From the NCBI GenBank assembly GCA_963737655.1, contig CAVTTN010000002.1, forward strand, positions 5,952,001-6,016,000: a DNA stretch of 64,000 bases. Direction: 5' to 3'. The position numbers were made by a program, and so were the translations under genes. Source of the stretch: an uncultured Planctomycetota bacterium. GTDB lineage: Bacteria > Planctomycetota > Planctomycetia > Isosphaerales > Isosphaeraceae. The notes beneath the pieces were generated by a model. It was not told where the DNA came from, did no database searches, and was given only the letters and a program-made list of their open reading frames with translations. Of this stretch, positions 6,593 through 34,494 are shown one piece after another (position 1 is the stretch's first letter; each line of letters opens with the position of its first letter).

Positions 6593-6659
6593 TCGGCAAG
6601 CGGGACCGAGTGGCTCTGTTGTGACCCTTCTGCCGCCCCGATTCCCGAAGAGGCCCGAG

Positions 6660-9047
6660 ATGGACGAACCGCAGGAACCTCGATACGCCCACACGCTCGA
6701 GGGGGCCGGTACGGACCGGTGGCAGACAATGCAAAAGCACCTCGCCGGGGTCGCTCGTCTCGCGGGGGACCACGCCGGGGCCTTCGGCTCGCGGGCCTGG
6801 GGTGAGTTGGCCGGGCTCTGGCACGACCTGGGCAAGTACGCCGAGGATTTCCAGTCGTACCTCAGGGCGTCCTCGCGAGACCCGGCGATCCTCGATGCCT
6901 CGGTGCTCGACGAACCGCGCGGACCGGGAAAGAAGGTGGACCATTCCACCGCCGGGGCCGCGTTCGTGTATGAGAAGTGCCAGGGAAAGCTCGGGGGAAG
7001 AGAGAGGAACGAGCTTCCCCCGACGGCCTTGACGCTGGCGATGGTCATCGCCGGGCACCACGGCGGGTTACCCAAGAGGTGTCAATTTGAGCAAGAACGG
7101 TTGACCGCCGAAGAGAAAACTTCCAGGCTCCGGGCCGCCAAATCGGGCGGCGCCCCGAGCGACCTTCTGGCCCACGAGTTACCCCCGCCACCGGACTTCC
7201 TGCGGCCCGAGGCTCTGCAAGGCGCGGCGTCCTCGCGGGAGGAACGCCTGCGGTTGTTCCAACTCCGCCACGAATTCTGGACCCGCATGCTCTTCTCGGC
7301 GCTGGTCGATGCCGACAGCCTGGACACCGAGGCGTTCTGCAACCCCGAGCGGTCCCGGGTCCGAGACCGGGCGAAGGGGGACGAAACCCTGCTGACCCGC
7401 ATGAAGGAGCGGCTCGACGCCCACCTCCTCCGCGTGGCGGACCGGGGGCGGGAGCGGGCGGATTCCCTCCCCGCCGGCGCCCGCGAACGGGCCGAGGCCG
7501 TCCTGGACCTCCGGGCCCGGGTCCTCGCCGCCTGCCGAGGCCGGGCCAAGGCGCCCCCCGGCCGTCGCAGCCTCACGGTCCCGACCGGCGGCGGCAAGAC
7601 GCTCTCGGCCCTGGCCTATGCCCTCGAACATGCGATCAAGAACGGGCTCCGCCGGGTGATCGTGGTGATCCCCTTCACCAGCATCATCGACCAGACGGCC
7701 GGGGTCTATCGCGACGCCTTCGGCGACGACCTGGCCGAATTCGTGATCGAGCACCACAGCAACCTCGACCCCGAGCGAGAGGAGTACCACAGCCGCCTGG
7801 CCTCGGAGAACTGGGACGCCCCGGTGGTCGTCACCACCAGCGTCCAGTTCTTCGAGAGCCTCTTCTCCCACAAGAGGTCGGCGACGCGGAAGCTCCACAA
7901 CATCGCCCGGAGCGTGGTCGTCTTCGACGAGGTCCAGACGCTCCCCCATGAGCTTCGCGAGCCGATCTTCGACGCCCTGAACGAGCTGGTGGACCACTAC
8001 GGCGTGTCGGCCCTGTTCTGCACCGCGACCCAGCCGGCCCTGTCGCTGAAGCAGGTCGGCCTCCAGGACTTCCCGCATCTCGTTGACGTGGAAGAGGTCA
8101 TCGACGACGTCGGCGCCCAGTTCGGGGCCGTCGCAGATCGGGTGAGCGTCGAGTTTCCCGAGGACGATGGGCCCACGACCTGGGAGGCCCTGGCGGCCCG
8201 GGTCCGCGAGCACGACCGGGCCCTGGCGATCGTCCACCGTCGCGACGATGCCCGCCTCCTCGCCGAAGCGGTCGGCCCGGGGACCGTCCACCTCTCGACT
8301 CGCATGTGCCCCACCCACCGCCGGGAGGTCATCGAGCGGATCAGGGCGGACCTGGCCGCGGGCCGTCCGATCCGAGTCGTGAGCACGACTTTAATTGAAG
8401 CCGGCGTCGATCTTGACTTCCCCACGGTCTTCCGCGCGCTCGGGGGGGCCGATTCCTGCGCCCAGGCTGCTGGCCGATGCAACCGTGAAGGCCGGCTGAC
8501 CGACGCGGAAGGCTACCCCATCCCGGGCCGCCTGATCCTCTTCCGCGCCCCCAGCGACCCGCCCCCGGGCTTGAGGCTCGGACTCCAGGTGGCCGACACT
8601 CTTCGACGATCGGGCGACCCCCTGGACCTGTTCGACCCGACGACGTTCGACCGCTATTTCCGAGAGTATTTCTCGTCGATCAACGTTGACCGGACCGAGG
8701 TGACCCTCTCACGCACGGAGCGGGATTTCCCCGAGGTCGATGCCCGATTCCGCATCATCGAGGAGGACGGGAAGGCCGGCGTGGTTGTTCCCTACGGCGG
8801 CTTCGAGGCCGGCGTCCGGGACTACGAGCGCGACCCCTGCCGCCGCACGCTACGCGGACTGCAACCGTTCCTCGTCAATGCCCACGAACATGATTTGGCG
8901 TTCTTCAGGAAAGAGGGATTGATCCAAACGATCCACGAGCAGGTCCATGTGTTGAGGGCGCCGGGTCCGCAGTATGACCCGACCTACGGACTGATCGTGG
9001 ACCGGGTCGTCCCGGCCGATCCCGGGGCGCTCATCACGGACCCCTGA
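6660..9047 (+). CDS. cas3: Type I-C Cas3 (HD nuclease + helicase), system A
   Basis: HDLGK, IAGHHGGL, LFSALVDADSLDT, VPTGGGKT, FDEVQ, EAGVDLDF, QAAGRCNREG. Confidence 0.95.
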   Translation: MDEPQEPRYAHTLEGAGTDRWQTMQKHLAGVARLAGDHAGAFGSRAWGELAGLWHDLGKYAEDFQSYLRASSRDPAILDASVLDEPRGPGKKVDHSTAGAAFVYEKCQGKLGGRERNELPPTALTLAMVIAGHHGGLPKRCQFEQERLTAEEKTSRLRAAKSGGAPSDLLAHELPPPPDFLRPEALQGAASSREERLRLFQLRHEFWTRMLFSALVDADSLDTEAFCNPERSRVRDRAKGDETLLTRMKERLDAHLLRVADRGRERADSLPAGARERAEAVLDLRARVLAACRGRAKAPPGRRSLTVPTGGGKTLSALAYALEHAIKNGLRRVIVVIPFTSIIDQTAGVYRDAFGDDLAEFVIEHHSNLDPEREEYHSRLASENWDAPVVVTTSVQFFESLFSHKRSATRKLHNIARSVVVFDEVQTLPHELREPIFDALNELVDHYGVSALFCTATQPALSLKQVGLQDFPHLVDVEEVIDDVGAQFGAVADRVSVEFPEDDGPTTWEALAARVREHDRALAIVHRRDDARLLAEAVGPGTVHLSTRMCPTHRREVIERIRADLAAGRPIRVVSTTLIEAGVDLDFPTVFRALGGADSCAQAAGRCNREGRLTDAEGYPIPGRLILFRAPSDPPPGLRLGLQVADTLRRSGDPLDLFDPTTFDRYFREYFSSINVDRTEVTLSRTERDFPEVDARFRIIEEDGKAGVVVPYGGFEAGVRDYERDPCRRTLRGLQPFLVNAHEHDLAFFRKEGLIQTIHEQVHVLRAPGPQYDPTYGLIVDRVVPADPGALITDP

Positions 9048-9060
9048 GCCGGGTCTTCGG

Positions 9061-9082
9061 TTCGCAGTAGCGAAATTTCCAA
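9061..9082 (+). promoter_or_regulatory. TTC PAM plus protospacer-like site in the AT-rich cas3-cas5 intergenic (probable promoter) region
   Basis: TTC at 9061-9063, then GCAGTAGCGAAATTTCCAA, which matches 9207-9225 at 17/19 positions. Confidence 0.75.
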
Positions 9083-9169
9083 AAATTCCCCGAACGCTCC
9101 CGGACGAGGGCCGTTCTTGGATCGGGCGAAGGTGCCCCACGCTCCTCGGGGCACCGATCGGCCGCGACG

Positions 9170-9240
9170 CGGCGGCCGACCGTCCCGGCGGCGTGTGGGT
9201 TGAAACGCAGTGGCGAAGTTTCCAATCCCCGAAAGGAGCA
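9170..9240 (+). ncRNA. CRISPR-like regulatory RNA element: solitary degenerate repeat plus promoter-matching guide in the cas5 5' leader
   Basis: Hairpin GCCG(A)CCG-TCC-CGGCGGC, then GTGGGTTGAAAC identical to the 3' end of the array repeat (ends at 9206), then GCAGTGGCGAAGTTTCCAA. Confidence 0.75.
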
Positions 9241-9917
9241 TGAATGTGACGAATGCCGAACGCACCTACCGTGTCCGAATCCGCGGCGAATGGGCCTGCT
9301 TCACCAGGCCCGAGCTCAAGACCGAGCGCGTGTCCTATCATGTGATCACGCCTTCGGCCGTCCGGGGGGCGGTCGAAGCGGTGGTCTGGAAGCCGGCGAT
9401 CCGCTGGAACGTCCACCGGATCGCGGTCCTGGCGCCGATCAAGTTCGCCTCGGTCAAACGGAACGAGGTGAACCGGGTCATCCCCACGCGGAACGCCCGG
9501 GCCCTGATGAGGGGCGAGGAGGTGCCCGACTACTTCGCCGACGAGGACCGGGCCCAGCGCAACGCGCTGGTCTTGCGGGACGTGGACTACGTCGCCGAGG
9601 TCTCGTTCGCGATGACCCGCCGCGCCGGCCCGGAAGACAACCCCCTGAAGTTCGACGAGATGTTCCGCCGCCGCCTGGAGCGGGGCCAGTACCACATGAG
9701 CCCGTACCTCGGCACCCGCGAGTTCCCCGCGATCATCGAGCCGGCCGGTGACGAGGACTGGAAGCCGATTGCCGTCGATATGGACCTCGGCCGGATGCTC
9801 CTGGACATCGACTACGGCCGCCCCAACCGCCCGGTCTTCTTCGAGGCCCGCATGAAGGGCGGCGTGATCGAGGTCCCGGCCATGAGCCGTCGCGAGGACG
9901 GCGAGGTGGGCGCATGA
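9240..9917 (+). CDS. cas5: Type I-C Cas5 (Cas5d), system A; start is ATG 9240 or GTG 9246
   Basis: GEWACFTRPELKTERVSY..ITPSAVRG, KRNEV, PYLGTREF; RBS AAGGAG at 9233-9238. Confidence 0.95.
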   Translation: MNVTNAERTYRVRIRGEWACFTRPELKTERVSYHVITPSAVRGAVEAVVWKPAIRWNVHRIAVLAPIKFASVKRNEVNRVIPTRNARALMRGEEVPDYFADEDRAQRNALVLRDVDYVAEVSFAMTRRAGPEDNPLKFDEMFRRRLERGQYHMSPYLGTREFPAIIEPAGDEDWKPIAVDMDLGRMLLDIDYGRPNRPVFFEARMKGGVIEVPAMSRREDGEVGA

Positions 9918-11731
9918 TCCTCAAGGAGCTGGCCGACCTGGCGAAGCGCGAGGGGCTGGTCGAGGACCCCGACTTCGAGCCCAAGCCCGTACGGTGGATC
10001 GTGCACATCGGCCTGGATGGGCAATTCTTCGGAATGGTCGACACGCGGGTTGAGGTCGACGGCAAGGCCCGGCCCAAGGTCCTCCAGGTGCCCCGCGCTC
10101 CGGTCCGGACGAGCGGATCGGCGGCGAACTTCCTCGTGGACAAGGCCGAATACGCCCTCGGATACGACCCCGACGAGAACCCGAGGAAGGTCCCGAAGCT
10201 GGCGCTCCACCGCTCCCTGTTCGCCGCGTCTGTCGAGACGGCGCTGACTCTGGCCCCCGACGACGCCGGCCTGAAGGCCCTGCTCGCCTTCGTCCGGGAC
10301 GACGCGGCGGTCTCCGGGGCGATCGGGGCCGTCCGGGGAAAGGCCGCCGCGAATGACCTGTTCGCGTTCCGCGCGATGCTCGGCGACGAGTCGGGCATGG
10401 TCCACGACCGCGAAGCCGTACGCTCGGCCTGGAAGGCGATGCGGCACCCGGCCGTCGAGGCGGGCGCCGACCTCCCGGAATGCCTCGTCTGCGGGGGCAG
10501 GGCCCCGGCCGTCGCCCACCCGCAGGTCAAGAGGATCCCCGGGGGCTCGACCTCGGGCATCGCGATCGTGTCGTCGAACGCAAGCGCCTTCGAGTCCTAC
10601 GGCCAGGAGGGGAACGAGGGAGCGCCGATCTGCCGCGAGTGCTCCGACTCCTACGGGACGGCCCTGAGCCGCCTGTTCCACCCGCAGTATACCGCCCCCG
10701 ACGGCCGGACCTTGCCCCGCCGGTCCTTCCGGCTCTCCGACGACACCGGGGTCGTCTACTGGGCCTCAGGAGCGGAGGAGCATCAGTTCGAAAACGAGAT
10801 CGGAGAACTCGATTTCGAGGACGCAGGCAAGGCCGGGGCGTTGTTCGAGGCCGTCCATTCCGGCAAGGGCGTCCTCCTCGGGGATACCACGCCGTTCCAC
10901 GCCCTGATCGTCACCGGGGGGCAGGGCCGGGCGACGCTTCGGAGCTACTTCCAATCGACCGTCGGCGAGGTCGCGGCGCATTTGCGGGAGTATTTCGAGG
11001 ACATCGAGATCGTCCGGCGGTTCCCGAACTCGCCGAGGTGGCCGCCGCTGTCGTGGCTGGTCCGCTCGCTGGCGGCCCAGGGGAAGTTCGAGAACGTGGC
11101 GCCGGCCCTCGCCGGCCGGCTGTTCCTGGCCATCCTCTCGGGCGAGTCGTTCCCCGCCGAGGTCCTCTCGGCGGCGATCGCCCGCATCCGCTCCGAGCCC
11201 GAAAAGCCCGACCAGGGGAAGTACAAGCACACCCGCGAACGGATGGCTCTGATCCGCGCCACGATCAACCGCTGGCTGAAGCCCCACGACCAGCGGGCCC
11301 CCGATCACCGAGTCGCCTCCCTGATCCGAAAGGAGATCCCGCCCGTGCTCGACGAGACCTGCTCCAACAATGCCTATTGCCTGGGCCGTCTGTTCGCCGT
11401 CCTGGAGAAGCTCCAGGGCGAGGCGATCGGCAAGGTCAACGCCTCGATCGCCGACCGCTTCTACGGGGCGGCCTCGGCCACTCCGGCGTCCGTCTTCGGC
11501 ACGCTCCTGCGCAAGGCACAGAGCCATCTCGCGAAGATGTCCGGGCCGTTCTACGTCCAGAAGATCCAGGAGGTGATGAACCTCCTAAGCCCGCCCGAAC
11601 CCTTCCCGACGACCCTCACCCTGGCCGAGCAGGGCCTGTTCGCCCTGGGTTACTACCAGCAACGGGCCGAACTCTGGACCAAGAAGCCCTCCCCGCAAGA
11701 CGACGCGGCCGGGTCCGAGACGAACTCCTGA
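9914..11731 (+). CDS. cas8c: Type I-C Cas8c/Csd1, system A
   Basis: MILKEL start, ANFLVDKAEY, AFESYG, AYCLGRLFAVLEKLQ, EQGLFALGYYQQ; ATGA overlap with cas5. Confidence 0.93.
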   Translation: MILKELADLAKREGLVEDPDFEPKPVRWIVHIGLDGQFFGMVDTRVEVDGKARPKVLQVPRAPVRTSGSAANFLVDKAEYALGYDPDENPRKVPKLALHRSLFAASVETALTLAPDDAGLKALLAFVRDDAAVSGAIGAVRGKAAANDLFAFRAMLGDESGMVHDREAVRSAWKAMRHPAVEAGADLPECLVCGGRAPAVAHPQVKRIPGGSTSGIAIVSSNASAFESYGQEGNEGAPICRECSDSYGTALSRLFHPQYTAPDGRTLPRRSFRLSDDTGVVYWASGAEEHQFENEIGELDFEDAGKAGALFEAVHSGKGVLLGDTTPFHALIVTGGQGRATLRSYFQSTVGEVAAHLREYFEDIEIVRRFPNSPRWPPLSWLVRSLAAQGKFENVAPALAGRLFLAILSGESFPAEVLSAAIARIRSEPEKPDQGKYKHTRERMALIRATINRWLKPHDQRAPDHRVASLIRKEIPPVLDETCSNNAYCLGRLFAVLEKLQGEAIGKVNASIADRFYGAASATPASVFGTLLRKAQSHLAKMSGPFYVQKIQEVMNLLSPPEPFPTTLTLAEQGLFALGYYQQRAELWTKKPSPQDDAAGSETNS

Positions 11732-11794: not shown

Positions 11795-12826
11795 ATGTCC
11801 GAACCGTCTCAGCCCGTCGATCGCCGCCACGAGTTCGTCCTGTTCTTCGACGTCCAGGACGGCAACCCCAACGGCGACCCCGACGCCGGCAACGCCCCCC
11901 GGATCGACCCTGAGACCGGCCAGGGGCTAGTCACCGATGTCTGTTTGAAGCGCAAGGTCCGCAACTTCGTCCAGCTCACCCAGGCCGAGGGCCAGGGGGC
12001 CGAGCGGAGGCCGATCGGCGGTTACGAGATCTACGTGAAGGAGCGGGGCATCCTCGCCGCCGAGCAGAAGAAGGCCTATTCGGCGATCGGCAAGGAACCC
12101 GACAGCCGGACCGCCACCGTGAAGGAGGCCCGCGCCTGGATGTGCAAGACCTTCTTCGACGTCCGGGCCTTCGGCGCCGTGATGAGCACGGGCAAGGCGG
12201 GCGACGAGGACGCCGAGCCTAGGGCCGAGAAGGGGACGAAGGACAAGGACGCGCCCGCCAAGAAGAAGCCGGCCGGTGCGCAGAAGCACTGGAATTGCGG
12301 GCAGGTGCGGGGGCCGATCCAGCTCTCGTTCTCGCGGTCGATCGACCCGATCCTCACCCTGGAGCACGCGATCACGCGAGTGGCCCTGACCAACAAGGAC
12401 GACACCAAGCGGGGCCAGGATCTCACCGGCGAGGGCGAGGAGGCATCCAGCGGGCAGATGGGCCGGAAGTCCACGGTCCCCTACGCCCTGTATCGGGGCC
12501 ATGGCTTCGTCTCCCCCTACCTGGCGCTGGATACTGGCTTCACCCGGGCGGACCTCGACCTGTTCTGGAAGGCCCTGGTCGGCATGTTCGATCACGACCG
12601 CTCCGCCTCCCGGGGGGTGATGGCCGCCCGGACGCTGATCGTCTTCGAGCACGCCTCGGCCCTGGGCAACCACCCGGCTCACCGCCTGTTCGAGCGTGTG
12701 AAGTGCGCTCGCACGCCGGAAGACGACCCGACCCGGGCGAAGCGGCCCGCCCGGAGGTTCGAGGATTACCGGGTCACGGTCGATGAGTCGGCCATCGAGG
12801 GGGTCACGATCCGCTCGCTGATCTGA
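11795..12826 (+). CDS. cas7: Type I-C Cas7/Csd2, system A
   Basis: GNPNGDPDAGNAPRID, TDVCLKRKVRN, FDVRAFGAV, QVRGPIQ, FDHDRSASRG. Confidence 0.96.
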   Translation: MSEPSQPVDRRHEFVLFFDVQDGNPNGDPDAGNAPRIDPETGQGLVTDVCLKRKVRNFVQLTQAEGQGAERRPIGGYEIYVKERGILAAEQKKAYSAIGKEPDSRTATVKEARAWMCKTFFDVRAFGAVMSTGKAGDEDAEPRAEKGTKDKDAPAKKKPAGAQKHWNCGQVRGPIQLSFSRSIDPILTLEHAITRVALTNKDDTKRGQDLTGEGEEASSGQMGRKSTVPYALYRGHGFVSPYLALDTGFTRADLDLFWKALVGMFDHDRSASRGVMAARTLIVFEHASALGNHPAHRLFERVKCARTPEDDPTRAKRPARRFEDYRVTVDESAIEGVTIRSLI

Positions 12827-12902: not shown

Positions 12903-13562
12903 ATGGAGATCGACGACTACCTGCCGCTCTCGGCGCTCCAGCACCTGATCTTCTGCGAGAGGCAGTTCGCCCTGATCCACGTCGAGGGGATCTGGGCCGA
13001 GAACGAGCTGACGATCTCCGGCCGCCAGCTCCACGAGCGGGCCGACCTCCCCGGCCAGTCCCTCGGCGCCTCGATCCGCGTCTCCCGGGCCCTGCCGCTC
13101 CGCTGCGATCGCCTCCGACTCTCGGGCAGGGCCGACGTGGTCGAGTTCCACCGCGAGGCCGGCCCCGGAGGCCCCGTCTGGCGCCCCTTCCCCGTCGAGT
13201 ACAAGCGGGGACGACCCAAGAGGGGCGGGGCCGACGAGGTCCAGCTCTGCGCCCAGGCCCTCTGCCTCGAGGAGATGACCGGGCTGGACGTCCCTCGCGG
13301 GGCCCTCTTCTACGGGACCACGAGGCGGAGGAAGCCGGTCGAATTCGATGCCCCCCTCCGGGCCCGGGTCGAGGCCGCCGCCCTCAGGTGCCATGCCCTG
13401 TTCGACGCCCGCTCGACCCCGAGAGCGACGCGGGACCGACGATGCGACCGCTGCTCCCTGCTCGACTTCTGCCTGCCGGGCGTGACGGGCCCGGCAGCCC
13501 CCCCGACGATCGACCCCGCCGACCCCCGACGCTACGCCCTTGTCCCGGAGGCCCCCCCGTGA
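12903..13562 (+). CDS. cas4: Cas4, system A
   Basis: LSALQHLIFCERQ, GRADVVEF, PVEYKRG, VQLCAQALCLEEM, CDRCSLLDFC. Confidence 0.95.
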   Translation: MEIDDYLPLSALQHLIFCERQFALIHVEGIWAENELTISGRQLHERADLPGQSLGASIRVSRALPLRCDRLRLSGRADVVEFHREAGPGGPVWRPFPVEYKRGRPKRGGADEVQLCAQALCLEEMTGLDVPRGALFYGTTRRRKPVEFDAPLRARVEAAALRCHALFDARSTPRATRDRRCDRCSLLDFCLPGVTGPAAPPTIDPADPRRYALVPEAPP

Positions 13563-14593
13563 GCGCCTACCACAACACCCTCTTCGTCACCACCCCCGGC
13601 GCCTACCTCGCCAAGGACCGCGAGAACCTGGCCGTGAGGGTCGAGCACCAGACCCGGCTCGCCGTCCCCTTCCACCACCTCGGCGGGGTCGTCTGCCTCG
13701 GGCCGGTCTCGGCCAGCCCCGAGCTGATGGCCGCCTGCGCCGAGAGGGGCATCGGCCTGTCCTTCCTCGACGGGGACGGCCGGTTCCTCGCGCGGGTGGA
13801 GGGGCCGGCCTCCGGCAACGTCCTGCTCCGCCGTCGCCAGTATCGCCTCGCCGACGACCCGGTCGCCGCGGCGGGGCTGGCCCGGTCCTTCGTCGTCGGC
13901 AAGGTGGCGAACGCCCGGGCCCTGATCGTCCGCTCCGCCCGCGAGCAGAAGGACCCGGCCCGCTCGGCCATCCTGGACTCGGCCGCCACGAGGCTCTCCG
14001 AGCGGCTCGCCGACCTGGGCAGGCCCGGCCAATCGCTCGAGACCGTCCGCGGCCTCGAAGGAGAGGCCGCCGCCACTTACTTCGCCGCCTTCGACGCCAT
14101 GATCCGCGCCGCCGACCCCGCCCTCCGGTTCGCGACCAGGAGCCGCCGCCCCCCGAGGGACCCTGTCAACGCGATGCTGTCGTTCGCCTACGCCCTGGTG
14201 CGTCACGACTGCACCTCGGCCCTCGCCGCCGTGGGCCTCGACCCGGCCGTCGGCTACCTGCACGCCGACCGGCCCGGGCGGCCCTCGCTCGCCCTGGACC
14301 TGATGGAGGAGTTCCGCCACTCCCTGGCCGACCGGCTCGTCCTGGCCATGATCAACCGCGGGCAGGTCTCGCCCTCGGGGTTCGTGAGCGACCCGGCCGG
14401 CGGGGTCGCGATGGACGCCGCGATGCGCAAGGCCGTCATCGTCGCCTACCAGGAACGCAAGCAGTCGTCGCTGACCCACCCCCTGACCGGCGAGGCGACG
14501 AGCTTCGCGATCGTGCCCCACATCCAGGCCCGCCTCCTGGCCCGGACGATCCGGGGCGACCTGGACCCCTATCCGCCGTTCCTCGTCCGTTGA
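13559..14593 (+). CDS. cas1: Type I-C Cas1, system A
   Basis: GTGA overlap with cas4. NTLFVTT, SGNVLLRRRQY, RGLEGEAA..YF, RRPPRDPVNAMLSFAY, LALDLMEEFR. Confidence 0.96.
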   Translation: MSAYHNTLFVTTPGAYLAKDRENLAVRVEHQTRLAVPFHHLGGVVCLGPVSASPELMAACAERGIGLSFLDGDGRFLARVEGPASGNVLLRRRQYRLADDPVAAAGLARSFVVGKVANARALIVRSAREQKDPARSAILDSAATRLSERLADLGRPGQSLETVRGLEGEAAATYFAAFDAMIRAADPALRFATRSRRPPRDPVNAMLSFAYALVRHDCTSALAAVGLDPAVGYLHADRPGRPSLALDLMEEFRHSLADRLVLAMINRGQVSPSGFVSDPAGGVAMDAAMRKAVIVAYQERKQSSLTHPLTGEATSFAIVPHIQARLLARTIRGDLDPYPPFLVR

Positions 14594-14613
14594 ACCTCCG
14601 AGGGGACCCCGCC

Positions 14614-14904
14614 ATGTTCGTCCTGGTCTGCTACGACGTCTCGACCACGACCCCGGCCGGCCGTCGGCGACTGAGGAGGGTGGCTCGCCTCTGCAAAGAC
14701 TTCGGCCAGCGGGTCCAGCAGAGCGTCTTCGAGTGCGACGTCGGCGAGGCGCAATGGGTGACCCTCCGACCGGCCCTCCTCGCGGAGTTCGACCCGAACG
14801 AGGACAGTCTCCGCTTCTACCGCCTCGGGGAGGCCCCCTCGTCCCGGGCCGAGCATCACGGGGTGCGGCCCTCGGTCGATTTTCAGGGTCCGCTGATCGC
14901 CTGA
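14614..14904 (+). CDS. cas2: Cas2, system A
   Basis: MFVLVCYDV...RRLRRVARLCKDFGQRVQQSVFEC...DSLRFY. Confidence 0.95.
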   Translation: MFVLVCYDVSTTTPAGRRRLRRVARLCKDFGQRVQQSVFECDVGEAQWVTLRPALLAEFDPNEDSLRFYRLGEAPSSRAEHHGVRPSVDFQGPLIA

Positions 14905-15164
14905 GCCGTGGCCCCCGCCGCCGAAATCGCGCCAACCCCCATCCCGGACGATGCACTCGGTCCACCCGAGGGCCGGCGGACTCGAACGCGGACCAGAAGC
15001 GATGCTGGAAAGGGGGGAGGATCGCGATTTGAGGGAAGTTCTTGGCTACAAAAGGTTTTGGTCGAGTAGCGCGGTCAGAAACTCGGGAAACTACCCCAAT
15101 GGCTGATTGGCCCGCTTTCCAGGTAACACAAATCCTTAACCCGCAAGAACCTATGCCTACAGGG
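14905..15164 (+). promoter_or_regulatory. CRISPR leader of array A
   Basis: Non-coding, more AT-rich segment between cas2 and the first repeat. Confidence 0.75.
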
Positions 15165-18132
15165 GTTCCCCTCGTCGACGAGGCGAGGGGTGGGTTGAAA
15201 CAACTCGGTGAGTCCGAGGAAGCATAGCCTGACGGGTTCCCCTCGTCGACGAGGCGAGGGGTGGGTTGAAACGATATGCCTTGAAGCCACCCGCCATCCC
15301 CGACAAGTTCCCCTCGTCGACGAGGCGAGGGGTGGGTTGAAACATCGCCAGGGCGACGACCCCCCGCGCCTCCAGGGCGTTCCCCTCGTCGACGAGGCGA
15401 GGGGTGGGTTGAAACGCGTAGGCGTAGAAGTGGGTCGGCTGGCCCCGGGTTCCCCTCGTCGACGAGGCGAGGGGTGGGTTGAAACTGCTCCCGGCCGCCG
15501 GCCACATCTGGCAGATCGAGTTCCCCTCGTCGACGAGGCGAGGGGTGGGTTGAAACCTCGCGTTCGGCTGGGCCCGGGGCAAGGACATCGTTCCCCTCGT
15601 CGACGAGGCGAGGGGTGGGTTGAAACACGCCGGGGGGTGACCCCGAGGCGTCTCCGCTGGTTCCCCTCGTCGACGAGGCGAGGGGTGGGTTGAAACCCGT
15701 CCGCATCCACCGGACGACCGACCGGCATGGTTCCCCTCGTCGACGAGGCGAGGGGTGGGTTGAAACCGCGACTACGCCTACACCGCGTGCCGGTGGAGGG
15801 GTTCCCCTCGTCGACGAGGCGAGGGGTGGGTTGAAACGGTGCCTTGCGCGACGTCCAGCGAGGGCTGTCGCGTTCCCCTCGTCGACGAGGCGAGGGGTGG
15901 GTTGAAACGCGATCCCCCCCCCAACGTCGGCGGCGGCCCCGTGTTCCCCTCGTCGACGAGGCGAGGGGTGGGTTGAAACGACACGATCGCCTCCACGCCC
16001 TCCGCGCCGTACCGTTCCCCTCGTCGACGAGGCGAGGGGTGGGTTGAAACTCCCAGATCTTCGTGGCGAGGCCCTCGAACGGGCAGTTCCCCTCGTCGAC
16101 GAGGCGAGGGGTGGGTTGAAACTCGAACTGGCCCCGGCGGACGAGCTCCTCGTGCAGGTTCCCCTCGTCGACGAGGCGAGGGGTGGGTTGAAACGCCAAT
16201 TTCGTGGAATTGCTGGCCATCTCCTGGCGTTCCCCTCGTCGACGAGGCGAGGGGTGGGTTGAAACGTCGCCGGCTACGGCAACGACGGCACGAGCCTGCC
16301 GTTCCCCTCGTCGACGAGGCGAGGGGTGGGTTGAAACGTTGAGGGCCTCGGCATCGAGCCAGTGGGGCGGCGTTCCCCTCGTCGACGAGGCGAGGGGTGG
16401 GTTGAAACCTTCCAGCAGACCGAGTGTCGATCGACCCCGGCCGGTTCCCCTCGTCGACGAGGCGAGGGGTGGGTTGAAACCGGAACCAGGGCCACGACTC
16501 GGCCGAGGAAGCCCAGGTTCCCCTCGTCGACGAGGCGAGGGGTGGGTTGAAACAGTTGCGGGCCGACGTCGCTGGGGTGCGACCTGGGCGTTCCCCTCGT
16601 CGACGAGGCGAGGGGTGGGTTGAAACCAGTACAAGCAGGAGGTCCTGGACCACGGCACCGGGTTCCCCTCGTCGACGAGGCGAGGGGTGGGTTGAAACAG
16701 GCCGCGGTCAAGAAGCGGCTGAGCGGCGAAAAGTTCCCCTCGTCGACGAGGCGAGGGGTGGGTTGAAACGGTTCAGGGGTTGATAAGGCGGAGGACCTCG
16801 ACCCGTTCCCCTCGTCGACGAGGCGAGGGGTGGGTTGAAACCATGATGAGGCGGAGCCGGCAGCACCGGGAGTGGCGTTCCCCTCGTCGACGAGGCGAGG
16901 GGTGGGTTGAAACATGTCGAGCAGGAAGCCCGTCCTGCCGCCCGAGCTGTTCCCCTCGTCGACGAGGCGAGGGGTGGGTTGAAACCGGCTCTTCGACGAC
17001 ATCATGCGGGACGAGGACATGTTCCCCTCGTCGACGAGGCGAGGGGTGGGTTGAAACCTTGCGCGAGTGCAACGCCGAGATCGACCGCGAGCTGGTTCCC
17101 CTCGTCGACGAGGCGAGGGGTGGGTTGAAACCTCGAGTCGGACCGCCGGGAGGACGCCGGCGCGGGGTTCCCCTCGTCGACTAGGCGAGGGGTGGGTTGA
17201 AACCGGCCACCTGGACCCCTCGACGCGTGCCGAAGCGTTCCCCTCGTCGACGAGGCGAGGGGTGGGTTGAAACTTCGGTGGCCAACCGGAACGCGAGCAA
17301 TTCGTCGTTCCCCTCGTCGACGAGGCGAGGGGTGGGTTGAAACCCGACGGACTGGGGCCGGCGGCTTCGGGCCGGGGCGTTCCCCTCGTCGACGAGGCGA
17401 GGGGTGGGTTGAAACGGGTCCAGGTCCGGCCGGATCGCCTTCAGCTCGGCCGTTCCCCTCGTCGACGAGGCGAGGGGTGGGTTGAAACGGCCCCGACGGC
17501 TATCCCGAGATCGAGGCGTTCGCGTTCCCCTCGTCGACGAGGCGAGGGGTGGGTTGAAACTGGTCGGGCGGTCCCGGGGCCGGCCTCCGCGACGGTTCCC
17601 CTCGTCGACGAGGCGAGGGGTGGGTTGAAACATTACGGCCAGGACGGCGCGTCGGTGGCGATCGGTTCCCCTCGTCGACGAGGCGAGGGGTGGGTTGAAA
17701 CAGGTCGGCCAGGGTCTTCGCGAGGTCGGCGAGCTGGTTCCCCTCGTCGACGAGGCGAGGGGTGGGTTGAAACACCTACGCGACGACGCCGGCCCAGACC
17801 GGCTCGCGGTTCCCCTCGTCGACGAGGCGAGGGGTGGGTTGAAACGGCGACGACGAGGCGACGATCGCCGCGTTGGCGGGGTTCCCCTCGTCGACGAGGC
17901 GAGGGGTGGGTTGAAACTCGGAGGTCGAGGACGTCCAGTGGGACCGCAAGGGGTTCCCCTCGTCGACGAGGCGAGGGGTGGGTTGAAACTCGGCCACCTG
18001 GGCCCGCAACACGTCCACGGGCGGTTCCCCTCGTCGACGAGGCGAGGGGTGGGTTGAAACTATTCGACCGCCGTGAACCGCGCCGGCCTCACCGGGTTCC
18101 CCTCGTCGACGAGGCGAGGGGTGGGTTGAAAC
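15165..18132 (+). CRISPR. Array A: 42 repeats of 37 nt (GTTCCCCTCGTCGACGAGGCGAGGGGTGGGTTGAAAC), 41 spacers of about 33-37 nt, plus a degenerate terminal repeat near 18166-18200
   Basis: Counted by eye. One variant repeat at 17167 (GACTAGG). The repeat has a hairpin and a GAAAC end typical of type I-C. Confidence 0.98.
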
Positions 18133-18425
18133 AAGTCTCCCAACTACCCTAGCCCTCGCCCAGTTCCGTCGCCTCGTCGGCGAGAGTTGAGCTCAAATCG
18201 GAATCGGACCGAGTGGAGACGAATTGCTTCGACGCTCTGGATCGCCTCCTCTGAAAGACCTCGGTCGGAAATCTGTACTCACTTTGTACTCATTTACCGG
18301 TCGGCGTACTGCCCTTCCCCGCACTTTCTCGCGTTCCGACGCACCGCTTTGCAAACGGCCCCGATCGCTGTATGATACTTCGCAGGAAGGCATTCCGGCG
18401 ATTTTCGGGGCGGGTGACGACCCGT

Positions 18426-18467
18426 TTCCCAAGCTGGACGTCAGGGGTTCGAATCCCCTCGCCCGCT
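18426..18467 (+). mobile_element. 3' fragment of tRNA-Gly(CCC); candidate att site at an island boundary
   Basis: TTCCCAA anticodon loop, GCTGG, T-arm AGGGG-TTCGAAT-CCCCT and acceptor 3' strand CGCCCGC-T. No D-arm or 5' anticodon stem upstream. Confidence 0.8.
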
Positions 18468-18763
18468 CTTGACTTAGGACAACAGGGCCGGTCTGGTTGC
18501 ACCCTGGGTTGCACCGGGGCTACGCGGCATCACGGGGTTACACGACCCCTGAGCGGTGCCAGCTCCAACCATGATGGGCAGCGAGAGGCAGGGGCACCGA
18601 CCCGCCGGGCGATCGGCTGGAGTCGAGTCGGTTGGAGCGGGTGCCGTGATCCTCCTGAGCCTATACCGGGCCACGGGCCAGGCTCGCCCCTTCGAAGATC
18701 GCATGACCGTGAGCTTAGGCCGAGAGACCTGCTGGCGGTCGCGCTGCTCAGGTGCGTTGAGAG

Positions 18764-18870
18764 GTTTCAATCAGCTCCCGACTCAGAGGCCGGGAGAGGC
18801 GTGAAGTCCGCTCGCATGGTCGCTCCCCTCCGCGTTTCAATCAGCTCCCGACTCAGAGGCCGGGAGAGGC
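18764..18870 (-). CRISPR. Array B mini-array: two identical 37-nt repeats (GCCTCTCCCGGCCTCTGAGTCGGGAGCTGATTGAAAC on the - strand) and one 33-nt spacer
   Basis: Repeats at 18764-18800 and 18834-18870, spacer 18801-18833. Possible eroded third repeat ending near 18729. Lies downstream of cas2 B with a leader-sized gap. Confidence 0.9.
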
Positions 18871-19118
18871 GGCCCTTCCCCAAGTGGCTCGGGCGCAGGG
18901 ATTTGCGAACAAGCCTTCGCGGACCTCGTCGGGATGCGGCCGAGGCCCGGTCGGTTATGGGGAGAGGGACTGCGTAAGGGTTCATGGGTCATGGATTTCG
19001 GACGATCGCGGACCCCCCGGCCCGACGCCGGAACGGGGGGTCCGCGATCCGTTCGACTCTACGTGGAAGCCTTCCGACTTGTCAAAGAGCGCGGGCCGAC
19101 CGGGGCTTCGGCCTCATC

Positions 19119-19409
19119 TCAGAGGATCAGGGGGCCGTCCAGGTCGAGCGGGGCGTTGACCCCGTGGTGCTCGATTTTCCTTCGGACGGCCTCGTCCAAA
19201 GGATAGATCCTCAGGCTGTCCTCGGCCGGGTCGATCTCACCCAGCAACGCCTCCCTGAGGAGGACCCATTGCTCCGGGCCGACCAGGCACTCGAAGACCG
19301 ACTGCTGGACGCGCTGGCCGTAGTTCTTGCAGGCCGTGGCCACGCGGCGGAGGCGTCGGCGGCCGGCCGGGGTGGTCGTGGCCACGTCGTAGGTCACGAG
19401 GATCAGCAT
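19119..19409 (-). CDS. cas2: Cas2, system B
   Basis: MLILVTYDV...RRLRRVATACKNYGQRVQQSVFEC. Confidence 0.95.
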   Translation of the reverse strand: MLILVTYDVATTTPAGRRRLRRVATACKNYGQRVQQSVFECLVGPEQWVLLREALLGEIDPAEDSLRIYPLDEAVRRKIEHHGVNAPLDLDGPLIL

Positions 19410-19422
19410 GGTCGGGCGGGCC

Positions 19423-20454
19423 TCAGCGGACGATGCATGGCGGGTAGGCCCCGGAATCGCCCCGGATGTGGCGGGCCAGGAGCTTCGCCTGGAGGAACGG
19501 GAGCTGCCCGATTCGCACCGGGGCGTCGAGCAGGGGGTGCTTCAGCTCGTCCCTCTTCCGCGCCACGTACGCCTGGACGAGGGTCTTGCGGGCCTCGGCG
19601 TTCATCTCGACGCCCCCTCCGTCCCGGCGGGCGAACTGCGAGGGCGCGACCTGCCGGCGGTTGATCAGGGCGAGGACCAGGCGGTCGGCGACGAGGGTGC
19701 GGAACTCCTCGACCAGGTCCAGGGCGAGCGAGGGGCGGCCGGGGCGGTCGGCGTGGAGGAAGCCGACGCTCGGGTCCAGGCCCGCGGCCGACAGGGCGGC
19801 GACGCAGTCGTGGACCATCAGGGCATAGGTGAACGAGAGCATCGCGTTGACCGGGTCGAGGGGCGGGCGTCGCGAGCGGCCGTCCATCGCCAGGTCCCGG
19901 CGGCCGTGGCGGATCATCCGCGGGAAGGCGGCGAAGTAGCAGCGGGCGGAGTCCCCTTCGCGGCCCCGGACCTCGTCGAGGGTCGCGGCGTCGGGGAGGC
20001 CCTCGATGCTCTCGGCCATCCGGCCGGCGGCGAAGTTCAGGGCGGCGACGTCGTCGGCCGAGTCGGACTCCCGGGCGGCCCGGAGCAGGGCGTTGCGGGC
20101 GTTGTGGACCTTGCCGGCGACGAACGAGCGGGCCAGGGGCAGGCAGGACTCGGGGCGGTCGGCGATCCGGAACTGCTGGCGGCGGAGCAGGACGTTGCCC
20201 GAGCCCGGGGCGTCCACCCGGCCGATCAGCCGGCCCGATTCGGACAGGAAGGTCACCGCCACGCCCGCCTCCAGGCAGAGCTCGATCAGCCCGGGGCTGA
20301 CCATCACCTGGCCGAAGGCGGCGATGGCGTCGAGGTTGTGGATCGGCAGGGCGAGCCTCTTCTGCTTCTCGACCTCGACGACGACCGTCCGGTGGTCGCG
20401 CCTCAGGTACGACCCCTGGGTGAAGACGTAGAGGGTGTTGAGCTGGATGTCCAC
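19423..20454 (-). CDS. cas1: Type I-C Cas1, system B
   Basis: LNTLYVFTQG, SGNVLLRRQQF, RGREG, RRPPLDPVNAMLSFTY, LALDLVEEFR. Confidence 0.96.
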   Translation of the reverse strand: MDIQLNTLYVFTQGSYLRRDHRTVVVEVEKQKRLALPIHNLDAIAAFGQVMVSPGLIELCLEAGVAVTFLSESGRLIGRVDAPGSGNVLLRRQQFRIADRPESCLPLARSFVAGKVHNARNALLRAARESDSADDVAALNFAAGRMAESIEGLPDAATLDEVRGREGDSARCYFAAFPRMIRHGRRDLAMDGRSRRPPLDPVNAMLSFTYALMVHDCVAALSAAGLDPSVGFLHADRPGRPSLALDLVEEFRTLVADRLVLALINRRQVAPSQFARRDGGGVEMNAEARKTLVQAYVARKRDELKHPLLDAPVRIGQLPFLQAKLLARHIRGDSGAYPPCIVR

Positions 20455-20487
20455 GGAGGGCGCCTCCCGGGTCGCCGACGGGGGGTT

Positions 20488-21171
20488 TCAGGGGGCGGGA
20501 TCGGAGAGCCGGGCCGAGAACAGGCCGCGGGCCATCGCGGCGAGGCGGCCGGGGTGGGCGAACGCCTCGGGCAGGCAGTGGCCCCGGAGCGAGCAGCCCC
20601 GGCACTGGGGCTTCTTCACCGCGGGCGGGACTTGAACTGAGGCGAGCAGGTCGTGGAGCCGGGCCACGGCGGTCTCGGTCTCGTCGCGGAGTTCGAGGGT
20701 GAACGGGACCTCGCGCCTCTTCTTGCTGACGGCGTGGAAGACGGCCCCCTCGGGGACCGGCAGGCCGAGCATCTCCTCCAGGCAGAGGGCCTGGGCGCAG
20801 AGCTGGACGTCGTCGTTGCTCCAGGGTCGGGCCTTGCCCCGCTTGTACTCGACCGGGTAGGGCGTCTCGACGAGGGGGAGGCCGGGCGGCTTTCGGCCGG
20901 GCCCGCGGCGGAACTCGACGAGGTCGGCGCGGCCGTAGAGCCGGAGCCGCCGGGAGGCGATCCACAGGCCGCGCTCGGTGCGGACGCCCTTGCGGCGCTC
21001 GAACCCGGGGCGGTCGGCCCTGCGGTGGAGCGAATCGCCTCGCCGGGTGTGCTCGTTGTGGACGTAGAGGCCCTCCAGGTGGCGCAGCGCCGCCCGGCGG
21101 TCGCAATACAGCAGGGCGTTCAGGGCCGACAGGGGGACGAGGTCGTCCCCCTCGGAGTCGGCGGCGGTCAT
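20488..21171 (-). CDS. cas4: Cas4, system B
   Basis: C-terminal part of ORF 20488-23055, from MTAADSEG: LSALNALLYCDR, GRADLVEF, PVEYKRG, CRGCSLRGHC. Confidence 0.93.
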   Translation of the reverse strand: MTAADSEGDDLVPLSALNALLYCDRRAALRHLEGLYVHNEHTRRGDSLHRRADRPGFERRKGVRTERGLWIASRRLRLYGRADLVEFRRGPGRKPPGLPLVETPYPVEYKRGKARPWSNDDVQLCAQALCLEEMLGLPVPEGAVFHAVSKKRREVPFTLELRDETETAVARLHDLLASVQVPPAVKKPQCRGCSLRGHCLPEAFAHPGRLAAMARGLFSARLSDPAP

Positions 21172-22121
21172 CGCGCCGGGTCCACGTGGCGGTGGAGCTT
21201 CACGCCCGGGAACCTCGCCTCGTCGAACCCGACCTTCACCGCGTAGTCGGCGAACGACTGTGGCATCGAGTCCCTGGCCTTCAGCGCCACCCCCACCGAG
21301 TCGAACAGCTCGTGGGCGTGGGCGCAGCCGAGCATCGCCTCGCGGCGGTTCTGCTCGGGGTTGGGGCCGGCCTGGGTGCCGACGTGCTCGAAGTCCAGGA
21401 CGCCCCGGACGACCATGTCCCCCCGGGCCGCCGAGCGGTCGTGGTCGAAGAGGTGCGTCAGGGCCTCGATGAAGAGGTCGTAGTCGGCCCGGTCGAACCC
21501 CGTGTTCTGGGCGAACCGGGGCGACACGTAGCACTTCGCGGAGTACAGGCCGTAGGGGACGATGTACTTCTGCCCCATCGTCCGGCCGCTCTCGGCATCC
21601 GCCTCCTTCGTGGCGACGCATCGGGTGATGGTGATCTCCTGGGTGGTGATCGGGTCGAACGACCTGCCGAAGGAGAACTGGACGGGCCCGCGGATCTGGC
21701 CGTGGGCCGAACCCTTCATGACGTCGCCGCCGGTCGAGATCACCTGGCCGAAGGTGCGGATGTCGTAGTACTGGTTGCAGAGCCAGTCCTTGATCAGGCG
21801 GCCGTGCTCGTCCTTGATCTTCGCCTTGTCCTTCTTCTCCCGGACCTGGTCCTTCGTCCTCGACTCGGCCTCGGCCTGCTTGGTGTTGAGGACGTTCCCC
21901 TGCTTGATGAGGATGTCGAACGCCTTGCCGTTGGTGGGCGGCGGGAAGAGGTCCACGTAGTTGCGGACCTTGCGCTTCAGGCAGACGTCGGAGACCAGGC
22001 CGCGGCCCGAGGCGGCATCGACCCGGGGCTGGTTGCCGGCGTCGGGGTCGCCGTTGGGGTTGCCGTTGGTGACCTCGAAGAGGACCAGGATGTCGTGGCG
22101 CGAAGCGAGGGGCTCGGACAT
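21168..22121 (-). CDS. cas7: Type I-C Cas7/Csd2, system B
   Basis: GNPNGDPDAGNQPRVD, SDVCLKRKVRN, QIRGPVQ, FDHDRSAARG. Confidence 0.95.
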   Translation of the reverse strand: MSEPLASRHDILVLFEVTNGNPNGDPDAGNQPRVDAASGRGLVSDVCLKRKVRNYVDLFPPPTNGKAFDILIKQGNVLNTKQAEAESRTKDQVREKKDKAKIKDEHGRLIKDWLCNQYYDIRTFGQVISTGGDVMKGSAHGQIRGPVQFSFGRSFDPITTQEITITRCVATKEADAESGRTMGQKYIVPYGLYSAKCYVSPRFAQNTGFDRADYDLFIEALTHLFDHDRSAARGDMVVRGVLDFEHVGTQAGPNPEQNRREAMLGCAHAHELFDSVGVALKARDSMPQSFADYAVKVGFDEARFPGVKLHRHVDPAR

Positions 22122-22163
22122 GGAACGGCGTCCTTTCTTGGTGGCGCGAGGGGGTCGTCCGGG

Positions 22164-24206: not shown

Positions 24207-24940
24207 GCCGTCGCCTCCTTCTTCTTGATGACCTTGACGCGGTCGGGGTGGCAGTCGAGCCGGGCCCCGACGACCCGGGCGTGGAAGAACACGGAGGCCG
24301 GCGCGACGTCGCGGCCGGAGCCTCGGAGCGTCGGGTCGAAGACGTCGTAGAGCATCAGGCCGAGGTCTTCGGTGGCCGCCCAATCCTCGACGCCGAGCCG
24401 GACGGCCGCCGGGTCCTCGACGTGCTCGAAGAAGGCGTCGAACTCCCGGACCCCGAGGCAGGGCCGGTGCGTACACTTCCCCGCCTTCGCCCGGCGGACG
24501 AACTGCCCGCGGTACTTCTCGATGAAGTCCCTCGGCGGCTCGGCCCGGTCCGTCAGGCGGATCTCGGACGTGATCAGGTATTCCACGCCCGAAAGCGCCA
24601 GCATGCCCCTCTGGGTGGTGTCGTCGGCACCGCCCCCGGCCCGGATCGCGGCCATCGGGGGCCCGCCCTCCATCGCCCGGCCCGCCTCCTTCATCGAGAC
24701 GACCCGCTTCACCTCGTTCCGCCGGAACGAGAACCACGAGCCGCGCCGGATGACCCCGATCGAGTCGATCAGGTAGCACATCTGAGGCTCCCAGTAGATC
24801 GCCTCCAGGATGCCGCGGGCCGCCGAGGGCGTGAGGAGCGGATAGGAGACGCGCTCCGCCTTGAGTTCGGGGCGGGTCACGCAGGCGAAATCGCCCCAGA
24901 CGCGGAGGGAGACGAGGCCCGGATGTTTGCTCACGCTCAT
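24203..24940 (-). CDS. cas5: Type I-C Cas5, system B
   Basis: WGDFACVTRPELKAERVSYPLLTPSAARGILEAIYW, RRNEV, PCLGVREF. Confidence 0.95.
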   Translation of the reverse strand: MSVSKHPGLVSLRVWGDFACVTRPELKAERVSYPLLTPSAARGILEAIYWEPQMCYLIDSIGVIRRGSWFSFRRNEVKRVVSMKEAGRAMEGGPPMAAIRAGGGADDTTQRGMLALSGVEYLITSEIRLTDRAEPPRDFIEKYRGQFVRRAKAGKCTHRPCLGVREFDAFFEHVEDPAAVRLGVEDWAATEDLGLMLYDVFDPTLRGSGRDVAPASVFFHARVVGARLDCHPDRVKVIKKKEATA

Positions 24941-25109
24941 CGCTCCTTTCGTGGCGTTGTCGGTTCGGAGGTGTCGAAGGGCGGGGCGAAGTCACGGCGA
25001 TCCGCGGCGATGCGATGGAGGTCGGGGGTCATCCGAGGGAGAGGGAGACATCCCCGGCCCGAGCGGCCTCGGGCCGGGGGCCCTTCGGTCCGCCACCGAT
25101 CGGGAGGGT

Positions 25110-34095: not shown

Positions 34096-34494
34096 ATGGC
34101 CGAGACGAACGACGCGGTGATCGGCAACCAGGAGTCGATCTTGGGCAACCAGGAGAGGATCCTGGCGAACCAGGCGACCATCGAGCGCAATCAGTCGAAG
34201 CTCGACAAGGTCGTCTCGAATCAGGCGGCGATCCTGGCGAACCAGGAGACCATCCAGCAGAACCAGAAGAAGCTGGACAGGATCGCCGCCAATCAGGCGA
34301 CCATCCTGGCGAATCAGGAGACGATCCAGCACAATCAGGAGAAGCTGGACAAGGCCATCGCCAACCAGGCGAGCATCCAGAGCAACCAGGAGCACATCCT
34401 GGCCAATCAGGAGACCATCGCCGCCAACCAGCGAGAGATCCTCGGCAACCAGCGAGAGATCCTCGCCAATCAGAAGAAGATCCTGACGAAGTGA
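34096..34494 (+). CDS. 132-aa IxxNQxx heptad-repeat coiled-coil protein
   Basis: AGGAG RBS; 16 NQ units spaced 7 or 10 residues apart. Confidence 0.85.
   Translation: MAETNDAVIGNQESILGNQERILANQATIERNQSKLDKVVSNQAAILANQETIQQNQKKLDRIAANQATILANQETIQHNQEKLDKAIANQASIQSNQEHILANQETIAANQREILGNQREILANQKKILTK

Follow-up and report, generated by a model that had tools for sequence, protein, structure and literature searches.

Known crRNA-like regulators and the locus examined

Type I-C CRISPR (short palindromic repeats, clustered and regularly interspaced) loci can carry non-cas genes between cas3 and cas5c, followed by a solitary repeat unit (SRU) directly before cas5c (Shu et al., bioRxiv 10.1101/2024.12.27.630466). 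Here we analyse a solitary repeat and spacer-like guide before cas5 (cas5c) of a type I-C system in 64,000 nucleotides (nt) of DNA from an uncultured Planctomycetota bacterium (GenBank assembly GCA_963737655.1, contig CAVTTN010000002.1, positions 5,952,001 to 6,016,000; this whole stretch is called the window, and coordinates without a locus handle are window positions). The cargos in the published loci include Neisseria Nezha, Gabija and eight 'CRISIS' cargos, and the SRU guide has a partial match, flanked by TTC or TTA, ahead of the cargo, TTC being the type I-C protospacer-adjacent motif (PAM). The published match is 16 bp long with a mismatch at position 6; positions 6 and 12 are free, and mismatches fall at 6/12 or on the PAM-distal side. 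Transcription starts 37-46 bp downstream of the target, the resulting CRISPR RNA (crRNA)-like RNAs (crlRNAs) are 48-50 nt long, carry an 11-nt handle and have their 3' end inside a 3' hairpin loop, and reporter repression was 4.8- to 60-fold. That preprint already gives an experimental description of type I-C SRUs directly before cas5c whose partial targets are flanked by TTC and in which positions 6 and 12 are free (bioRxiv 10.1101/2024.12.27.630466).

CreR RNAs, which derive from degenerate mini-CRISPRs, have been shown experimentally to autorepress type I-B, I-E and V-A effectors (Liu et al., bioRxiv 10.1101/2023.03.10.532045); for type I-C, that preprint mentions only manually found 'creA-like elements'. 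It also covers CreTA of Haloarcula type I-B, which consists of a CreA antitoxin RNA and a CreT toxin. A survey found repeat-like sequences in 34% of 1,206 type I-C loci (PMC10120712, Table 1), and viral mimics of such RNAs, some of them aimed at type I-C loci, have been reported (10.1101/2024.10.29.618823).

A solitary repeat and a guide that matches its own upstream region

The cas3-cas5 spacer of the window contains the following features.

9061-9063, + strand: TTC PAM, directly 5' of the target, on the strand bearing the guide sequence
9064-9082, + strand: target (protospacer-like), 17/19 to the guide
9087-9094 and 9226-9233, + strand: TCCCCGAA, second block common to target region and guide, 4 nt out of register, read from the sequence
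9131-9155 and ~9155-9182, + strand: two G+C-rich stem-loops between target and pseudo-repeat, with no T-run after them
9196-9206, + strand: predicted 11-nt 5' handle TGGGTTGAAAC, equal to the last 11 nt of the array repeat
9207-9239, + strand: spacer-like guide, 33 nt to the cas5 ATG, inside the array spacer range of 33-37 nt

The sequence-only reading of this DNA had reported that GTGGGTTGAAAC at 9195-9206 is identical to the 3' end of the repeat of CRISPR array A, and direct reading of the sequence agrees: these are the last 12 bases of the 37-nt repeat. The handle lies on the cas strand, directly upstream of cas5c and 33 nt before its ATG, and the sequence 5' of it in the pseudo-repeat is degenerate. 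We counted 43 occurrences of GTGGGTTGAAAC in the 7.63-Mb genome, of which 42 are in the array, 1 is before cas5 and 0 are elsewhere (reversed control, 0).

Guide bases 1-19, GCAGTGGCGAAGTTTCCAA (9207-9225), match GCAGTAGCGAAATTTCCAA (9064-9082) at 17/19 positions, in register from base 1, with mismatches only at positions 6 and 12 and with TTC directly in front of the target, 143 nt upstream of the guide. These values, given earlier in the sequence-only reading, can be read directly, and so can the end of the in-register match after position 19, since positions 20-23 of guide and target mismatch. With positions 6 and 12 left free, the PAM plus target is a single 0-mismatch site in the genome, and the DNA of the guide itself is preceded by AAC, which is not a PAM. 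The similarity resumes with the TCCCCGAA block after a 4-nt gap, so that the guide resembles a duplicate of the target region whose in-register pairing an indel has cut to 19 nt; as judged from the two sequences, the block records that guide and target share an origin.

To obtain a null distribution, every window position outside the array was taken as the start of a mock guide and scored by its best in-register match, with every sixth base free, adjacent to TTC or TTT and at most 1 kb upstream. Of 59,522 starts, 2 reached 17 or more in-register matches, and both are 24/24 self-matches, taken to lie in tandem repeats near 34 kb. Chance falls far short of explaining the match; the element is genuine and plainly not random. 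At 34123-34484, Tandem Repeats Finder (TRF) located tandem repeats of 21, 63 and 72 nt, probably within a coding region.

The interval between target and repeat is short (112 nt from the target end at 9082 to the start of the repeat end at 9195). It contains no cargo gene and no credible open reading frame (ORF): 9083-9195 has no ATG, and its sole frame is a 28-codon TTG frame for which no Shine-Dalgarno sequence was seen by eye.

Compared with the published type I-C SRUs, the window shares the subtype, the site before cas5c, the 11-nt handle, an upstream same-strand target and TTC, as well as a partial match (19 nt in the window, 16 bp in the published case) with mismatches here at 6 and 12; it differs in having no cargo, no 3' hairpin, and a guide that lies over the cas5 ribosome-binding site (bioRxiv 10.1101/2024.12.27.630466). 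With the CreR RNAs it has in common a degenerate repeat that keeps the handle nucleotides and a guide partly matching a PAM-flanked site at the promoter of effector genes, a promoter role that in the window is predicted, and the model of autorepression that senses crRNA load and anti-CRISPRs is shared as well; a typical type I CreR, however, has two pseudo-repeats, whereas the window has one (bioRxiv 10.1101/2023.03.10.532045). The likeness to CreTA is that of a crRNA-like RNA sending Cascade to a promoter by partial complementarity, which in the window is a proposal, but the window has no toxin candidate between target and pseudo-repeat (no ATG, only the TTG frame). As in the survey, a repeat-like sequence lies in a cas intergenic region and is conserved among close relatives. 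The survey threshold was a 16-bp match and the window has only 12 identical bases, so the element may have fallen below it (PMC10120712). For annotation, 12 bases of repeat identity suffice to flag elements of this kind, which a 16-bp threshold would miss.

Conservation and covariation in related loci

Related loci were collected by Cas5 searches in species-representative genomes, in metagenome contigs and in 121 genomes of the same order. The relatives, with Cas5 74-91% identical to that of the window, belong to Planctomycetota; named members are a Paludisphaera metagenome-assembled genome (MAG) and 'Planctomycetales bacterium 71-10'. Merging of identical sequences (L012=L281, L013=L079=L283, L077=L078) left 12 distinct loci including the window. 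The motif (G/A)TTGAAA(C/T) occurs within ~130 nt before cas5 in 9 of the 12 (window, L012, L013, L075, L076, L081, L082, L083 and L282). In an alignment of the solitary units, GTGG-TTGAAA is invariant, and the flanks and guides vary. The repeats of arrays on the relatives' contigs end in the same handle, with the exception of the L079 array, which has C for T at handle base 1.

A target search was assessable in 6 of the 9 solitary-repeat loci, those with at least 700 nt upstream (L012, L076 and L082 were too short), and 5 of these 6 have their own same-strand upstream site that matches the guide from base 1. The five guide-target pairs are listed below with matches, mismatched guide positions, PAM, distance and mock-guide count.

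Window: 17/19; mismatches 6, 12; TTC; 143 nt upstream; mock guides 2/59,522
L013: 14/14; no mismatch; TTC; 669 nt upstream; mock guides 0/12,422
L083: 14/16; mismatches 6, 12; TTT; 693 nt upstream; mock guides 0/1,470
L282: 14/15; mismatch 6; CTT; 723 nt upstream; mock guides 0/2,487, no PAM required
L081: 11/14; mismatches 6, 11, 12; TTC; 655 nt upstream; mock guides 14/7,758

The L081 mock guides were counted at a strict score of 9, and 8 of the 14 are 24/24 matches that most likely come from its CRISPR array.

Comparison of the pairs shows that guides and targets change together. At positions 1, 3 and 8 the L081 guide departs from that of L083, and the two targets change identically; between L013 and L282, positions 1 and 12 have changed in the guide and in the target alike. 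The sequence-only reading had proposed a check for guide-target covariation in orthologous spacers, with positions 6 and 12 free, and both expectations were borne out: the handle is kept, the guides vary, in 5 of the 6 assessable loci the guide has an in-register match at an upstream site of its own locus, and the mismatches of the relatives fall at 6 and 12 (L083 at both, L282 at 6, L081 at both and also at 11). Covariation of this kind supports selection on the guide-target relationship. Five guide-target pairs with one invariant handle make up a natural covariation series, which supports the mechanism considered below from the side of sequence.

For L012, whose contig begins at the repeat, a genome search with the PAM and 15 guide bases at up to 3 mismatches returned 17 matches, vs. 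33 for the reversed control. Among 63 type I-C loci of genome contigs, TTGAAA(C/G) occurs within 400 nt before cas5 in 15. A PAM-flanked target is convincing only in L013; the 11 matches of L022 lie 3.1 kb off and next to PAM CCA. By this crude test, which covered the genome-contig loci and, of the 80 metagenome loci, the close relatives, the layout is lineage-specific.

Three further observations concern the handle sequence. In L076 (179-215) the handle is duplicated, with GAGTTGAAAC, then GCGGCG, then TGGGTTGAAAT, before the guide. In L080, where cas5 is not preceded by a solitary repeat, CCCCGGGTTGAAAC lies at 314-346, ~3.4 kb upstream of cas3. In viral contigs we found at least 152 occurrences of GCGTGGGTTGAAAC, and among the matches listed none is followed by a guide like any of eight guides (best 10/14).

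An ECF-sigma-like cargo in relatives

L013, L081, L083 and L282 reproduce the full layout of the published SRU loci (bioRxiv 10.1101/2024.12.27.630466), in the order cas3, target in the spacer, cargo gene, solitary repeat directly after it, and cas5. The cargo genes, 166-196 codons long in L013, L081 and L083, resemble extracytoplasmic function (ECF) sigma factors.

L013 7327-7917: ECF-sigma-like cargo, Pfam Sigma70_r2
L081 1871-2371: ECF-sigma-like cargo, Pfam Sigma70_r2
L083 1526-2083: ECF-sigma-like cargo, Pfam Sigma70_r2
L282 ~854-1396: ECF-sigma-like cargo, by homology
L075 1742-2071 (5'-truncated): ECF-sigma-like cargo, by homology

Matches to Sigma70_r2 are at 4.7e-7 to 4.6e-6, and the L013 cargo also matches Sigma70_r4_2 at 8.4e-7. 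The L282 cargo is 36% identical to that of L013 (E = 4.6e-24), and the truncated cargo of L075 is homologous to that of L083 (E = 4e-6); no Pfam match was obtained for the short stretches of upstream sequence in L076 and L082. Such a cargo differs from the published ones as far as the main text of that preprint goes, where the word 'sigma' occurs 0 times, its supplementary list being outside this comparison (bioRxiv 10.1101/2024.12.27.630466). In the cargo-bearing relatives, a transcription factor rather than an effector would be the CRISPR-'supervised' gene. In L013 (7898-7917) and L282 (~1380-1399, with TGA inside GGTTGAAAC) the stop codon of the sigma-like ORF lies in or just after the handle, and coding sequence and pseudo-repeat therefore overlap.

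No sigma remnant was detected in 8950-9300, and the window contains no homolog of the cargo sigmas at E <= 1e-3. In a Cas5 tree built from 15 rows, of which 10 were in-group and 5 out-group (L078, L079, L088 and L281-L283 were set aside as duplicate, partial or later found), in-group support was 98/98 and the window joined L075 and L076 at 94/88, with the two repeat-less rows nested inside. The window thus groups with the sigma-bearing L075, and its cargo-less state is probably derived, a conclusion with weak support. The window guide differs from the guides of these nearest relatives, L075 and L076.

A predicted self-targeting regulatory guide

On this evidence, the element is likely to be a type I-C solitary repeat that encodes a crRNA-like RNA of the CreR/crlRNA kind, with a self-targeting regulatory guide. 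The sequence anatomy, the uniqueness in the genome, the conservation and the covariation are the established part of this reading. We infer from them, by analogy with the described systems, the production and processing of an RNA, the position of a promoter, repression, and its relief by titration through crRNAs or anti-CRISPR proteins. The leader of a cas5-cas8c-cas7 transcript would bear the 11-nt handle UGGGUUGAAAC, followed by the spacer-like guide; Cas5c would bind the handle and perhaps cut on its 5' side, and Cas7, Cas8c and Cas11 would be assembled on the guide. The complex would then recognise TTC at 9061-9063 and pair 19 nt of guide with the template strand at 9064-9082; bases 6 and 12 would be flipped out and would not need to pair. 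Pairing ends at 19 of ~34 nt, so the R-loop would be incomplete and Cas3 would not be licensed. Held on the DNA, the complex would lower transcription into the Cascade genes, a negative feedback that would relax when array crRNAs draw off Cascade subunits or anti-CRISPRs block them. With no cargo in the window, the regulated genes would be the Cascade genes themselves.

If so, crRNA-like-RNA self-regulation of CRISPR would extend to Planctomycetota (Isosphaeraceae-like genomes), and the window would offer a type I-C solitary repeat that has no cargo and is directed at the spacer ahead of the Cascade genes of its own locus. Two features stand out, namely the overlap of the guide with the cas5 translation start and the ECF-sigma-like guarded cargo of the relatives.

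Several observations weigh against a functional regulatory guide. The hairpin that the sequence-only reading had placed at 9170-9206 did not hold up: folding of 9160-9206 gave z = +0.55 vs. shuffles, with an unstructured centroid and no supported hairpin, and the window pseudo-repeat has no stem ending at the boundary of the 11-nt handle. Such a stem is present in the array repeat and in the L075, L081 and L083 pseudo-repeats and is weak in L013; in the window, cutting by Cas5c may therefore be poor. Folding also showed no stable 3' hairpin after the window guide, unlike the published type I-C crlRNAs and L013 (where the loop lies ~47-49 nt from the handle start). A sigma-70 scan of 8800-9400, which does not cover planctomycete promoters, returned 0 sites, and the window has no counterpart of the -10-like TAA(C/T)(T/G)(G/T) of L013 and L282 described below. 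Two relatives have non-canonical PAMs (TTT in L083, CTT in L282). In L075, the closest relative, the repeat and a guide are present, but no in-register target was detected, the best result of a loose search being 11/16, out of register and without a PAM; this locus lacks cas3 upstream, and its sigma-like gene is truncated at the 5' end. Finally, 3 of the 12 related loci (L077/L078, L080 and L088) have no solitary repeat before cas5, so the element is dispensable. The earlier proposal of a crRNA-like autorepressor is thereby upheld in one part, a guide with an intact handle matched to a TTC-flanked cas3-cas5 site, with covariation in its favour, and weakened in another, the hairpin of the pseudo-repeat.

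By eye, TAA(C/T)(T/G)(G/T) lies 43-48 nt after the target start at L013 7284-7289 and L282 720-725. It may be a -10 element, which would put the target next to the -35 position.

Alternative explanations

The two 19-mers could also be direct repeats unrelated to CRISPR RNA, produced by plain local duplication or serving as two sites of a protein regulator. The 8 further bases shared beyond the 4-nt gap are what a duplication would leave. However, one copy begins exactly after a repeat end that has no other occurrence outside the array, and the other exactly after TTC; four more loci, unrelated or diverged in sequence, repeat this geometry at a distance of 655-723 nt, with a gene in between; and mismatches at 6 and 12 are a Cascade signature that would not be expected of a protein site. 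We regard this explanation as highly improbable. Less improbable, although still quite unlikely, is that the element is a decaying relic of an ancestral module of target, ECF-sigma-like cargo, solitary repeat and cas5, which lost its cargo and left a repeat and guide with no regulatory role. The grouping of the window with L075 and L076 (94/88), L075 having a sigma-like gene before its repeat, fits such a history, as do the degenerate stem of the window pseudo-repeat and the sigma-70 scan without a promoter. A relic would, however, be expected to retain the old guide and lose the match, whereas the 11-nt handle of the window is intact and its guide is unlike those of L075 and L076, yet matches its own cargo-less spacer next to TTC with mismatches only at 6 and 12. 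The lack of a sigma remnant in 8950-9300 also speaks against a relic.

The third explanation turns on the overlap of the guide with the cas5 translation start. The cas5 Shine-Dalgarno sequence AAAGGAG (9232-9238) constitutes guide bases 26-32, and the guide ends at the cas5 ATG. The distance from handle to start is ~33-36 nt in 4 of the 9 loci (33 in the window and ~35-36, by eye, in L012, L081 and L083), which is within or near the array spacer range of 33-37 nt. The four intervals from repeat end to cas5 start are as follows.

Window: 9207-9242
L012: 15-52
L081: 2425-2463
L083: 2136-2174

In L012, L081 and L083 a purine-rich Shine-Dalgarno sequence lies, by eye, at roughly guide positions 23-28, which with the window gives a range of 23-32, and none of the four loci has a clear 3' hairpin before the start codon. 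These observations would suit a mainly cis action on RNA, in which loading of Cas5c/Cas7 or 3' trimming blocks or removes the cas5 translation start and the DNA match is secondary. Against this, handle and start are much farther apart in the other five loci (91 nt in L013 and, by eye, of the order of 100 nt in L282, L075, L076 and L082), L013 and L082 carry a strong 3' hairpin, so the overlap of guide and start is not general, and the overlap leaves the covariation of guide and DNA target unexplained. We give a mainly cis mechanism little credence and prefer the self-targeting regulatory guide. A combination of the two, to which we assign a low but somewhat greater probability than to cis action as the main mode, would be a two-level feedback, in which the leader RNA is a DNA-targeting guide and at the same time carries the cas5 Shine-Dalgarno sequence and start in its Cas7-coated 33-nt 'spacer', and in which, in the relatives, an ECF-type sigma would also be under Cascade control. 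If this were true, building one regulatory complex would silence or sever the mRNA on which it was built, the Cascade genes would depend on the amount of free Cas5 and Cas7 for both their transcription and their translation, and the control of the ECF-type sigma in the sigma-cargo relatives would run through this guide as well.

Gene layout of the window

A profile search with NCBIfam identified a complete type I-C system on the + strand of the window, with the following genes and array.

6621-9047, + strand: cas3 (HD nuclease and helicase), NCBIfam cas3_HD 3.9e-30 and cas3_core 7.7e-23
9240-9917, + strand: cas5c, pre-crRNA endonuclease and handle-binding subunit, NCBIfam Cas5c 4.8e-40
9914-11731, + strand: cas8c, NCBIfam Csd1 9.4e-113
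11795-12826, + strand: cas7, NCBIfam Csd2 1.2e-95
12903-13562, + strand: cas4, NCBIfam
13540-15032, + strand: cas1-cas2 region, NCBIfam
15165-18132, + strand: CRISPR array A, 42 repeats of 37 nt, repeat GTTCCCCTCGTCGACGAGGCGAGGGGTGGGTTGAAAC

The cas3 stop codon lies 14 nt upstream of the TTC PAM. The cas5 gene starts with the ATG at 9240, with AAAGGAG in front of it (9232-9238). Residues 6-216 of the 225 in the Cas5 query, near full length, match the Cas5c chain 8dex_A (3.8e-57); residue 6 is aligned with residue 5 of 8dex_A, and the N-termini agree within one residue. The cas5-cas8c-cas7 genes are presumed to form the regulated Cascade operon. The handle sequence comes from array A, which also supplies competing crRNAs; its spacing is 70-74 nt, and its spacers are therefore 33-37 nt long.

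A second type I-C system faces the first one, on the minus strand of the window at 18760-25150. Its cas5 (24263-24913) encodes a protein 43% identical to the first Cas5, and its cas genes extend down to ~19100. Neither TTGAAAC nor a solitary repeat was found in the leader of this cas5 (24914-25150, minus strand). The second system has a two-repeat mini-array at 18765-18870, the repeat ends of which are GATTGAAAC. Between the two arrays, at 18395-18470, lies a stretch ending in GGGGTTCGAATCCCCTCGCCCGCTC, in which ARAGORN called no tRNA; it resembles the 3' half of a tRNA (T-arm and acceptor) and may be the remnant of an attachment site.

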